Shown here: positions 5,426 to 48,768 of the stretch, one piece after another | Layout: each line of letters opens with the position of its first letter | Position numbering within the stretch: position 1 is the first letter of the stretch | NCBI GenBank assembly: GCA_022798795.1 | Contig: JAAWNF010000003.1 | Span: 1-57,346 of the forward strand | Source of the DNA: Bacilli bacterium | GTDB lineage: Bacteria; Bacillota_I; Bacilli_A; RF39; UBA660 | Reading direction: 5' to 3' | Length of the DNA stretch: 57,346 nucleotides | Position numbers and translations under genes: made by a program | The notes under the pieces: generated by a model | Databases searched by the model: none | Told to the model about the DNA's origin: nothing | What the model saw: only the letters and a program-made list of their open reading frames with translations

Positions 5426-5446
5426 GGCGTCGTTTTAAAAACTTTG

Positions 5447-5687
5447 AAAGAGAGAATACTAGCAATTATTCAAAGAGAACTTACATTTGGTGAAAGTAGG
5501 TAATAGGAACTAGTACGAATGGCTCTGGAGTTGTTTATCTGAATTTTTAGGATAAACCGCAATTTGCGTTATAAAAGCAAGGTAAAATAAGTATGTGTAT
5601 TTCTTACGAAAAAGCTTATTTTATAAAAAAAGGTGGTACCACGTTATCCCACGTCCTTTTATTTTGGACGTGTTTTTTCTTTTTTTG
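5447..5687 (+). ncRNA. T-box riboswitch, Met specifier
   Basis: Stem I (agag/ctct and tactag/ctagta pairings; AGAGA and GGTGAA motifs), specifier ATG at 5519-5521 followed by a purine, T-box AAGGTGGTACCACG (5630-5643), and terminator acgtcc...ggacgt plus U-tract. The UGGU bulge fits an A73 discriminator (Met), not G73 (Trp). Confidence 0.9.
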
Positions 5688-22236: not shown

Positions 22237-22443
22237 AAAAAACCTCCTTTATCATATAACCATATTATAGCACATTTTTTATAAATAAAAAATGATACAT
22301 ACTGGGGTTTTTTATTTCTAAAAAGCAATTGATAAGAGTAGAGGTCTAATTATTTTAAAAAAGGATAAAATTTACTGTAGCAAAGAAAACAACAATATGA
22401 TAGAATAGTAAACAATTATTATGTTATGGGAAGGGTGTTTTGT

Positions 22444-24714
22444 ATGAAAAATGTGATTTCTACTCCATTTGGAAATTTTGAGGTGAAGCAAAATAATAAG
22501 CCATTAGAATTTAATTGTATAATTAAAAATTATTCATCAAATAAATCTCCAGCTTTAATTCGTCTATATGTAGTAGAAGTAGAAACCAAAGGACAAGACT
22601 CTCTAATTTGTGGATTTGAAAAGCCTATTTTTGAGAAGCTGAGTAAAGATGAACATTCAACGACATTATTTGTAGAAAATGATACTTTAGTATTAGGATT
22701 ATGTAGTCTAAATCCGAATAAACAGACTTATATCATGACAACCAATGATGAATATGGTTTTACATATAAAACGGAAAATAAAATAACTTTAATTCTTTGT
22801 TGTATAGAAAAAGACAAATTTAAAGATGCGAAAAAGGTGATTGAAAAAGCAATCAAAAGTGAAATAGAAGCTACTATGAATATAAAGATTAAAAAAGAAA
22901 AAAAACAAAGTAAACCAATAGCTACGATTTTTCTATTTGGTTTGTTATCGTTGATATATGCAATTTTTGCATTCCTTTTAATGAAATATAAAATAGTTAG
23001 TAATGAAACTTTAAAAAAAATAGGCATTGGAATTTTGGGGGTTTTATTGACATCCTTTGCACTGGCTAATTTATCTGGTTCAAAAGAACAAAGAAAAATG
23101 AAAAAAACAAAAACGACATTTTTGATATCGTTGTTGTTGCTAATTATGATATTAATAAGCATTGGATTAACACTATATATAATATTAATTAGAACTGGTG
23201 TAGTAAAAAATGAAATGATTTTAGGAATAGGTCTCATGATTATTTCTCTCGTAATTTTGTGTTGGTTCGTATCAGAATATAAAATAGAGAAAAAAGCCTA
23301 CGATGAAATTTTAAAAAAAAAGGAAACAAAAGAAAGCATTAATGTAGGAGAAAAAACAAAACAAATTCATCCTAACCTTTTATATTTAACAAATATGTTT
23401 CCAAAAAAATTAAAAAATGATTGTATAAACTTAATAAGCAAATTTCAAATAGAAAATATAAAAATGAGTGAATTAACAACAACGTATCAGTTAACAAGAG
23501 AAACGGTAACGATTCCCTATCGTATTGAAATAATAGAACAAGAAGTCGAAAATTTAAATGAAACAGAAAAAATTCTATTGTATTGTATTTATACAAGACA
23601 TTATGATGGGCATATCAGGGAAAAATACATAAAAAAATTATTAGAAATAGAATTATATGAATGGGAATTTCCATTTTTGCTACAATTAAGTCAAGAGTAT
23701 GTATATGAAATTGTGGAAGTTATTTATAATGAATTAAAAAAAGGAAAAAATGTTAAATTAAAAGAATTTGCAAAAAACAACAAAGAATTGATGTGTAAAG
23801 GATATTCGAAGATGTTAGAATATTGGAATCGTTTTTATAGGAATAAATGTTTAAATTTGCATAACTATGTAGGAAGAAAACTATTTTATGAGTGTTTTGG
23901 GTATAGTAGAAAGTATGAAAAGAAAAGATATCAATGTGCTTGCTGCCAAAATAAGACGATTATTGGTTATTTCATTCATTATTATAATGAACCATGTCCA
24001 GTTTGTCATTGGCAAAACAATATCATTCAAAATAATGACCCAAATAAGGAAGGAATCAATCAAGTAACATTAAAAGAAGCACAAGAAAACTATCAGAAAT
24101 TTGGTGCGATAAAAGAAGAATATGTGTCTCTTGTTAGAGAGCCAACAGAAAAAGAAAAAGTGAAAATGAATGTAGAGCAAATCATAAAATTGATTAAAAT
24201 GACACTTATAAAAGAAGGAATGACAAGAAACAAAAAAGGACTCTATGAATATCAAAAACAATATTTTAAAATTAGTTATTGTGAAAATAATATTTTAATA
24301 GAAAAAGCCAAAAACAAAACTGATATAGAAAAAAATATTTGGGAGTTAGTAGAGAAAGTCAAGGTAGAATTTGATTATAAATTATTGATAGAAAAAATAG
24401 TATCAATAATAAAGGCATGTGAAAAGAAAAAAAGCAAAAAACTTTCAAAAGCAGAAAAAGATAAAATTGTAGAAGAAGAAATTAATCGTTGGAATCCATT
24501 AGGATTAATCAAAGATGAAAAAGCAAATGGAGAATATCAACTAGAAATTAAAAAGGTAACAACAAAGTTAAGCAAACTGAAAACAGAAATAGAATTAAAG
24601 GAACATATAGAGCAAGTCTTTCAGCAATTATTTGGAGAAAATCTATTCATGAATAAGAAAAAAGAAGTAGAAGAAGTAGCTAAATTAGTATGGGAAAGAA
24701 TGAATCAAAAATAG
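22444..24714 (+). CDS. Large multi-module membrane protein (N-terminal domain, 4 TM helices, TRHxDG domain, Cys-rich CPCC domain, unknown module, DUF1871-like domain)
   Basis: Continuous ORF, probable ATG 22444. TM block about 22920-23270; IYTRHYDGHIRE...WEFPF..EYVYEI...YWNRFYR; CACC...CPVCHWQ...INQVTLKEAQENY; RWNPLG...EYQLEI...FQQLFG. Confidence 0.8.
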   Translation: MKNVISTPFGNFEVKQNNKPLEFNCIIKNYSSNKSPALIRLYVVEVETKGQDSLICGFEKPIFEKLSKDEHSTTLFVENDTLVLGLCSLNPNKQTYIMTTNDEYGFTYKTENKITLILCCIEKDKFKDAKKVIEKAIKSEIEATMNIKIKKEKKQSKPIATIFLFGLLSLIYAIFAFLLMKYKIVSNETLKKIGIGILGVLLTSFALANLSGSKEQRKMKKTKTTFLISLLLLIMILISIGLTLYIILIRTGVVKNEMILGIGLMIISLVILCWFVSEYKIEKKAYDEILKKKETKESINVGEKTKQIHPNLLYLTNMFPKKLKNDCINLISKFQIENIKMSELTTTYQLTRETVTIPYRIEIIEQEVENLNETEKILLYCIYTRHYDGHIREKYIKKLLEIELYEWEFPFLLQLSQEYVYEIVEVIYNELKKGKNVKLKEFAKNNKELMCKGYSKMLEYWNRFYRNKCLNLHNYVGRKLFYECFGYSRKYEKKRYQCACCQNKTIIGYFIHYYNEPCPVCHWQNNIIQNNDPNKEGINQVTLKEAQENYQKFGAIKEEYVSLVREPTEKEKVKMNVEQIIKLIKMTLIKEGMTRNKKGLYEYQKQYFKISYCENNILIEKAKNKTDIEKNIWELVEKVKVEFDYKLLIEKIVSIIKACEKKKSKKLSKAEKDKIVEEEINRWNPLGLIKDEKANGEYQLEIKKVTTKLSKLKTEIELKEHIEQVFQQLFGENLFMNKKKEVEEVAKLVWERMNQK

Positions 24715-24715
24715 G

Positions 24716-24737
24716 AAAGTGCAAAAGCACTTTTTTT
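24716..24737 (+). terminator. Intrinsic terminator
   Basis: aaagtgc-aaaa-gcacttttttt. Confidence 0.8.
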
Positions 24738-24803
24738 AATAAAAAAACAATATAGTAATTCTGTAAAAATTTAAAAAAATTTGATGAAAATCATAAAAAT
24801 GTG

Positions 24804-48694: not shown

Positions 48695-48768
48695 AGGGGT
48701 ATAGTTCAATGGTAGAATAACGGTCTCCAAAACCGCTGATGTGGGTTCAACTCCTGCTACCCCTGCCA
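48695..48768 (+). tRNA. trnW: tRNA-Trp(CCA)
   Basis: Cloverleaf AGGGGTA/TACCCCT, G73, encoded CCA, anticodon loop CT-CCA-AA, T-loop TTCAACT; A27-C43 mismatch. Terminator follows at 48778-48800. Confidence 0.97.

Follow-up and report, generated by a model that had tools for sequence, protein, structure and literature searches.

Polyimmunity loci are the described systems closest to the gene considered here, and they have been reported to be strain-variable (Zhang et al. 2012, Biol Direct 7:18, PMC3482391). The same survey equates Imm16 with DUF2750 and lists Imm64 as the immunity protein for Tox-ColD. A further point of reference is CdiI of Escherichia coli O32:H37, which, as outlined in PMC12585627, adopts a unique Cys-coordinated metal fold and neutralises a colicin-D-like RNase. 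Our subject is a single open reading frame (ORF) at positions 22444-24714 (+ strand) of a 57,346-nt stretch of contig JAAWNF010000003.1 from a Bacilli bacterium, a stretch that was analysed as a whole and is referred to as the window. The ORF encodes a 756-aa protein of six parts, namely an N-terminal beta domain, four transmembrane helices, a mid domain, a CPCC domain, a module designated module 5 and a DUF1871-like tail, and we put forward, as a tentative reading, that this is a membrane-tethered polyvalent immunity-type protein.

The window protein resembles the polyimmunity proteins of PMC3482391 in that unrelated, non-enzymatic small-protein modules are combined in one polypeptide, in that at least two of its module families are found in toxin/immunity arrays elsewhere, and in its rapid divergence. 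Unlike those proteins, it possesses a four-transmembrane anchor and a private N-terminal domain, and its modules do not figure among that survey's Imm families. With O32:H37 CdiI it shares a small Cys-coordinated metal fold, as far as PMC12585627 outlines it and with metal binding by the CPCC module being predicted here. Whereas CdiI is a free protein of ~65 aa next to a CdiA-CT RNase, the corresponding unit is here one internal part of a membrane protein of 756 aa, and no toxin gene adjoins it. Mobile orphan-immunity arrays of Bacteroidales (locus L040, described below) likewise contain a mid-domain member, in tandem with Imm16/DUF2750 and SUKH, but as separate genes on a mobilizable element with an integrase, whereas the window modules are fused, chromosomal and vertically inherited. 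Finally, the C-terminal 90 residues share a predicted fold with the DUF1871/YugE-like family (PF08958, 1u84), and orthologues pass the Pfam threshold there; DUF1871 is, by contrast, normally a free Bacillus protein of ~80 aa, and the window tail falls under the threshold. Relative to the known polyimmunity proteins, the new features of the window protein are its transmembrane anchor, its fixed chromosomal site, its invariant architecture and the uncatalogued domain family at its core.

With respect to domain content, a Pfam scan of the whole protein returned Cys_rich_CPCC as the sole family above threshold, an NCBIfam scan returned zero matches, and no catalytic domain was detected in either. 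The full-length AlphaFold (AF2) model has a low overall predicted local distance difference test score (pLDDT 59.6), yet several parts are resolved. Residues 1-150 (22444..22893) make up a predicted cytoplasmic, beta-rich domain, modelled as a beta-sandwich (residues 1-125) plus a helix at a pLDDT of about 75-80. The hidden Markov model (HMM) of this domain matches the 12 orthologue clusters only, it has no significant match in Pfam or PDB, and Foldseek with the whole protein gave only insignificant beta-sandwich matches. Four transmembrane helices follow at residues about 158-276 (22915..23271), recognised by hydrophobicity and as long helices (residues 157-278) in the AF2 model. An N-in/C-in topology, with all soluble parts predicted to be cytoplasmic, is favoured because of the Lys plus Arg counts around the helices (6 in the N-flank, 4 in loop 1, 6 in loop 2 and 2 in loop 3), the absence of a signal peptide in the protein and the presence of a Cys-metal module. 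A Lys/Glu-rich variable linker (residues 277-309; 23272..23370), delimited in the orthologue alignment, leads into the mid domain. It is up to about 45 aa longer in some orthologues, shows 17-42% identity, and has a ratio of non-synonymous to synonymous divergence (dN/dS) of about 0.6-2.

This layout is close to that of the first-pass annotation, which had been made from the letters of the stretch and had placed in one ORF an N-terminal soluble domain, four transmembrane helices (about 22920-23270), a TRHxDG.RE...W..PF-type domain (about 23370-23910), a CPCC Cys-rich domain (from 23929), a module of no known kind (about 24165-24420) and a DUF1871/YugE-like domain. The soluble domain and the helices were recovered at these places, the TRHxDG.RE-type motif is present and conserved in the mid domain, the CPCC assignment scores far above its Pfam cut-off when checked by HMM for that module, and the part without a recognised family corresponds to module 5. 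The DUF1871 assignment held in part: the fold matches 1u84 and two orthologous tails pass the cut-off, but the window sequence itself stays below it. The description of the gene as a single ORF with its own terminator, isolated between gpsA and the S10 operon and with no toxin gene nearby, was likewise borne out, for toxin genes as far as the immediate flanks.

The mid domain (residues 310-493, 185 aa; 23371..23922) consists of a beta-hairpin and then a helical-repeat-like domain. An AF2 model from a 25-sequence alignment reached a pLDDT of 91.9 and a predicted template modelling score of 0.87, with the beta-hairpin followed by about eight helices. Foldseek found no match to this fold in PDB or BFVD (best E 0.2 and 0.67, TM-score ≤0.43), and the domain matched nothing in Pfam, NCBIfam or PADLOC, nor by profile among PDB sequences. 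The predicted fold is both confident and novel. Queried by itself in a word-indexed search, the mid domain returned one protein; an exhaustive HMM search, used instead, gave 1,481 clusters (defined at 50% identity) at E≤1e-3, from Firmicutes, Bacteroidota, Proteobacteria and Actinobacteria. Stand-alone proteins, taken as those of ≤240 aa, account for 118 of the 150 best family matches. Residues R360, C381, R385, G389, R392, W407, Y419, N446 and Y460-W461 are near-universal.

Where the mid domain is fused, its partners differ. Four-helix transmembrane anchors unrelated to that of the window protein accompany it in P0049, P0089, P0109, P0130, P0145, P0159 and L022, and further partners include a GDSL hydrolase, TPR repeats, a weak DMP19-like module and a cohesin/MACPF protein, which bears the mid domain at its C-terminus. 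Sequence comparison indicates that the domain has been joined independently to unrelated four-transmembrane anchors and to varied C-terminal modules. The gene for the cohesin/MACPF protein (1,350 aa; L049, 2523-8518) comes after one for an extracytoplasmic function sigma factor and one encoding 196 aa, and a DUF4304 gene is found close by. The protein may represent a toxin joined to an immunity-type module, or else two genes fused by the gene call. In two Clostridia metagenome-assembled genomes (MAGs; L011, 718-6216, and L016, 35-5515), a stand-alone mid-domain gene lies 10 bp downstream of a gene for a protein of 1,826-1,832 aa, in which an N-terminal AraC-type helix-turn-helix is followed by three long internal repeats without Pfam match.

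Several stand-alone copies lie among immunity genes or on mobile elements. In Bacteroides finegoldii (L040; plasmid record NZ_OY725938.1, 2240-8851), an integrase, a MobV relaxase, a mid-domain gene, a DUF2750 gene (E 2.8e-27), a SMI1_KNR4/SUKH gene (E 6.6e-10) and a MORN-repeat gene are arranged on one strand, the DUF2750 and SUKH genes at gaps of 37 bp and 64 bp. Judged by these family matches, the locus is an array of mixed orphan-immunity genes carried by a mobilizable element, and the segment is also found in Phocaeicola massiliensis (H33). In two Exiguobacterium genomes the mid-domain gene begins 4 bp after an Imm64 gene (2e-22), downstream of glmS, and one Clostridium copy adjoins conjugative-element genes of the VirB4/TraG-like and CHAP kinds. 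Among the 25 loci inspected, none has a stand-alone gene for CPCC, DUF1871 or module 5 next to a stand-alone mid-domain gene.

The CPCC module (residues 494-572; 23923..24159) is a predicted zinc-ribbon-like domain whose residues 496-571 match PF14206 (E=3.2e-18, 65.7 bits against a gathering cut-off of 24.5). C498, C500, C501, C518 and C521 are invariant in the orthologues, and the C-x-CC ... CP-x-C motif is kept. Both the profile and the single sequence match PDB 8ey4_I / 8ey3_A at E of about 1.5e-6, and the alignment with 8EY4_I, over about 55 residues, lines up all Cys ligands. The protein in PDB 8EY3/8EY4 is named 'Cys_rich_CPCC domain-containing protein'; it may be CdiI of E. coli O32:H37, and a literature search returned no relevant paper citing either entry. 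Elsewhere, CPCC occurs as a stand-alone protein of ~75 aa on many plasmids. In Pseudomonas aeruginosa (L035; NZ_CP116719.1, 3108-6111) the neighbours of a CPCC gene include a glutamine-deamidase toxin fragment accompanied by Imm35 (3e-18), as well as a fragment of an endonuclease. This array is interspersed with REP-associated-transposase-like genes and repeated 'KINLSPFF'-encoding elements, and looks like a product of cassette turnover by REP/RAYT elements. Taken together, these loci tie two of the window protein's modules, the mid domain and CPCC, to toxin/immunity arrays elsewhere, the mid domain through its neighbourhood only.

In the C-terminal part, module 5 (residues 573-665; 24160..24438) is an alpha/beta module of no known family, modelled over residues 577-660 with H-EEE-H-E-H topology at a pLDDT of about 83. 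Its HMM matches orthologues only, and it is the fastest-evolving folded part of the protein (identity 40-53%, dN/dS 0.30-0.40). The DUF1871-like helical tail (residues 666-756, plus stop codon; 24439..24714) is modelled as helices over residues 669-753 at a pLDDT of about 80. On the tail alone, PF08958 (DUF1871) scores 14.3 bits (E=0.054), below the 22-bit gathering cut-off, whereas the tails of orthologues P0018 (28.6 bits) and P0023 (29.6 bits) lie above it. The fold matches PDB 1u84 (Foldseek probability 0.99, TMt 0.72, root-mean-square deviation 2.9 over 86 columns), which we take to be the representative structure of DUF1871. A C-terminal profile found no match among PDB sequences, and the tail had none among plasmid sequences.

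The evolution of the gene was followed through its orthologues. HMM searches and alignment identified 12 orthologue clusters with the full six-module architecture, from MAGs labelled uncultured Tenericutes or Bacilli, and the window allele is present in mouse-gut metagenomes. For every orthologue with readable context, rpsF-ssb-rpsR lies upstream of the gene, which in most cases is flanked by gpsA and rpsJ. Between genomes the protein is 30-71% identical, compared with 77-100% for flanking proteins. By the Nei-Gojobori method, dN is 0.18-0.30 and dN/dS 0.22-0.28 for this gene, against 0.01-0.09 and 0.03-0.13 for ychF, gpsA, rplD and rplB. Its dS resembles the ychF and gpsA values, and its non-synonymous divergence is 3-7 times that of its neighbours. 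With synteny kept, dS comparable and dN/dS raised relative to the flanks, the gene is, on these estimates, transmitted vertically, and selection on it is purifying though clearly relaxed.

Individual genomes add detail to this picture. Relative to L005, DNA identity is 96-100% across gpsA and about the first 150 codons of the gene, 66-79% over the rest of the gene, and 98-99% again directly after the stop codon. In the divergence analysis, identity is 99% over those codons (dS 0.15) and falls to 47-79% beyond them. This profile places a recombination breakpoint inside the gene near 23000, with a mosaic boundary at ~22900-23100. Allelic replacement by horizontal transfer was considered as the cause of the divergence as a whole and was weakened, since dS about equals that of ychF and gpsA and a clear mosaic is seen against L005 only. 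In L019 (5977-8096), whose ychF is 94% identical, the copy is degraded: an N-terminal stretch lies in another frame, the ORF ends at residue ~447, and an IS200/IS605-like transposase ORF adjoins it. No CPCC or DUF1871 part is present in the remainder of that contig. The degraded copy suggests that the gene is dispensable, subject to the assembly quality of this MAG.

A change of a different kind is seen in the divergent orthologue P0018 (L032, 399-3047), also directly upstream of rpsJ, where an in-frame insert of ~120 aa separates the N-terminal domain from the transmembrane helices. In this region (residues ~172-262 of the protein), residues 174-239 score 34.4 bits with Ntox50 (PF15542), and the insert matches the C-terminal toxin domain of the Bacillus subtilis LXG protein YxiD (PDB 9v8i_B, 1.2e-8), aligning with the C-terminal half of that domain only. 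Ntox50 is absent from the window protein in the Pfam scan. The idea that the insert is catalytically dead, based on WLIP in place of HxVP, was dropped, as the YxiD C-terminal domain itself has AIVP at that place. By its domain matches, the insert ties the orthologue family to RNase-toxin conflict. What CPCC, Imm64 and Ntox50 would have in common is a connection with RNase toxins of the colicin-D/BECR type, a pattern that is coherent but circumstantial.

These observations can be combined into a model in which the protein is anchored by its four transmembrane helices, faces the cytoplasm, and is passed on vertically within one lineage of uncultured gut Bacilli. Its non-enzymatic binding modules (the mid domain, CPCC, module 5 and the DUF1871-like tail) would be strung along the inner face of the membrane, where they would bind toxin domains that neighbouring bacteria inject, and so neutralise them. 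The targets would plausibly be RNase toxins of the colicin-D/BECR/LXG-Ntox50 type, and membrane tethering would matter for function. This immunity reading is plausible and the likeliest of those weighed here. We count in its favour the homology of CPCC to 8EY4/8EY3, the presence of CPCC and mid-domain genes in immunity arrays, the fast divergence, the breakpoint relative to L005, the degraded copy in L019, the insert in P0018, the lack of a catalytic domain and the independent fusions of the mid domain. A more specific version is somewhat doubtful: here the protein would serve reduced-genome gut Bacilli as a membrane-tethered 'immunity hub' with a fixed chromosomal site, specialised against BECR-fold RNase toxins (colicin-D-like contact-dependent inhibition toxins and LXG/Ntox50 proteins), the mid domain would be a large immunity family, and P0018 would have captured its Ntox50 domain, or use it as a decoy, with the protein's own immunity modules binding it.

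Against an immunity function stand a number of findings, many of which would suit a lineage-specific membrane scaffold or regulator of ordinary cellular role, such as an adaptor recruiting cytoplasmic partners through generic binding modules, whose fast evolution would merely reflect weak constraint. The gene occupies a fixed core chromosomal position away from polymorphic-toxin loci, with no toxin or secretion gene in its immediate flanks. Its module set, unlike the strain-variable sets of polyimmunity loci, is invariant across the clade: when module content was compared among the 12 clusters, as the first-pass annotation had suggested, architecture and position proved constant, the Ntox50 insert of P0018 being the sole change. 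Every folded module is under purifying selection (dN/dS 0.11-0.40), with values >1 in the linker only. Recognised Imm families occur in 2 of about 19 independent mid-domain contexts, and in the other 17 or so the gene is solitary, beside housekeeping genes such as adk-map, leuS, gltX and nfo, or beside pil genes or ABC exporters. The near-universal Arg, Trp and Tyr residues of the mid domain, kept across phyla, would equally suit a ligand-binding or enzymatic role. DUF1871, module 5 and the N-terminal domain showed no link to immunity; CPCC, DUF1871, YugE and DMP19 are not mentioned in PMC3482391, and a literature search found no paper linking Cys_rich_CPCC/PF14206 or DUF1871 to immunity. The metatranscriptome depth of the gene, on a par with its neighbours, also suits a scaffold. 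That explanation sits poorly, however, with the degraded gene in L019, a genome so close in ychF, with non-synonymous divergence 3-7 times that of the flanks, with the recurrence of two modules in immunity arrays and the RNase-toxin domain inserted in P0018, and with the confinement of the gene to one narrow lineage. We regard a scaffold or regulator as unlikely, if not by a wide measure. Set beside the earlier claims, the immunity reading is partly supported. The suggestion that the module families usually occur as separate small proteins near polymorphic-toxin loci agrees with the predominance of stand-alone mid-domain proteins, with stand-alone CPCC and with some Imm-containing arrays, but most mid-domain contexts are without toxin or immunity genes. 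The proposed origin from fused orphan immunity genes is in keeping with mid-domain and CPCC genes in immunity arrays and with fast evolution; the other modules are unlinked to immunity, and the internal Met residues thought to mark former gene starts found no support. M575, the first-residue Met of module 5, is not conserved, and since orthologues carry P, I, L or V at this position it provides no evidence of a former gene start. Of the two outcomes that had been named as speaking against the idea, a clade-wide invariant architecture was indeed observed, while a lack of association with toxin loci was not what we saw for homologues of the mid domain and CPCC.

A third explanation, which we consider improbable, is that of a one-protein defence or abortive-infection sensor-effector, or an addiction-type module, in which the modules would sense an invader protein and the transmembrane bundle, or in P0018 the Ntox50 RNase in cis, would act as effector. 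In general terms, many single-gene defence proteins have a comparable layout, with a transmembrane segment ahead of a series of binding modules; P0018 does combine a toxin-type RNase domain and CPCC in one polypeptide, and the gene is fast-evolving and dispensable. Yet neither the protein and its modules nor P0018 and P0089 matched any PADLOC-DB 2.0 family at E≤0.1, the sole row of the whole scan being a weak Cas3-HD match (E=0.0078, 14.4 bits) in one stand-alone flavobacterial relative of the mid domain. There is likewise no significant PHROG link, and the gene lies outside any defence island and is not flanked by mobile-element repeats. The transmembrane region is, in addition, short, without a channel-family match in Pfam, and not common to the other mid-domain fusions. 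Very little probability attaches to the remaining explanation, a non-functional fusion or decaying relic of accessory genes. The GC content of the gene (0.25, under the 0.28-0.35 of its flanks) and the degraded L019 copy would agree with decay, but the reading is largely refuted by the selection analysis: 11 diverged orthologues keep an unbroken frame of 680-882 aa, each folded module shows the constraint given above, the CPCC cysteines are invariant, and metatranscriptome contigs match the gene exactly.

In terms of gene structure and expression, the ORF runs from an ATG at 22444 through its stop codon to 24714, within a frame open from 22426. A Shine-Dalgarno-like GGGAAGGG (22428..22435, + strand), read from the sequence, lies 8 nt 5' of this ATG, and the N-termini of the orthologues, all MK(N/D)VI in the alignment, match a start at 22444. 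On the strength of this site and the shared N-terminus, we take ATG 22444 to be the functional start. Just 3' of the stop codon is an intrinsic-terminator-like hairpin (24716-24740, + strand; AAAGTGC-AAAA-GCACTTT, then a T-run) with a 7-bp stem containing 3 G-C pairs. The neighbours in the window are gpsA, on the - strand, upstream and rpsJ of the S10 operon downstream. No paralogous modules were found elsewhere in the window, and no repeats that would hint at mobility flank the gene. Mouse-gut metatranscriptome contigs cover 22834-23034, 23299-23553, 24400-24550 and 24540-24753 with zero differences, at a depth resembling that over gpsA and rpsJ. This suggests that the gene is transcribed, with carried-over DNA a possible source of the contigs. 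Elsewhere in the window, the only two Rfam matches at gathering score are a T-box leader (5435-5661, + strand; 111.5 bits) and a tRNA gene (48695-48765, + strand).

Should the immunity reading prove wrong, the mid domain would still be a well-defined structural and functional target, because its predicted fold is confident and novel. If the immunity reading is correct, toxin immunity would be hard-wired into a core chromosomal slot as one membrane-anchored polyvalent protein, unlike the known mobile and strain-variable arrays. A domain family of about 1,480 clusters that is missing from Pfam, NCBIfam and PDB would also gain its first function, and there would be a way into the question of how uncultured gut Bacilli with reduced genomes withstand toxin warfare.

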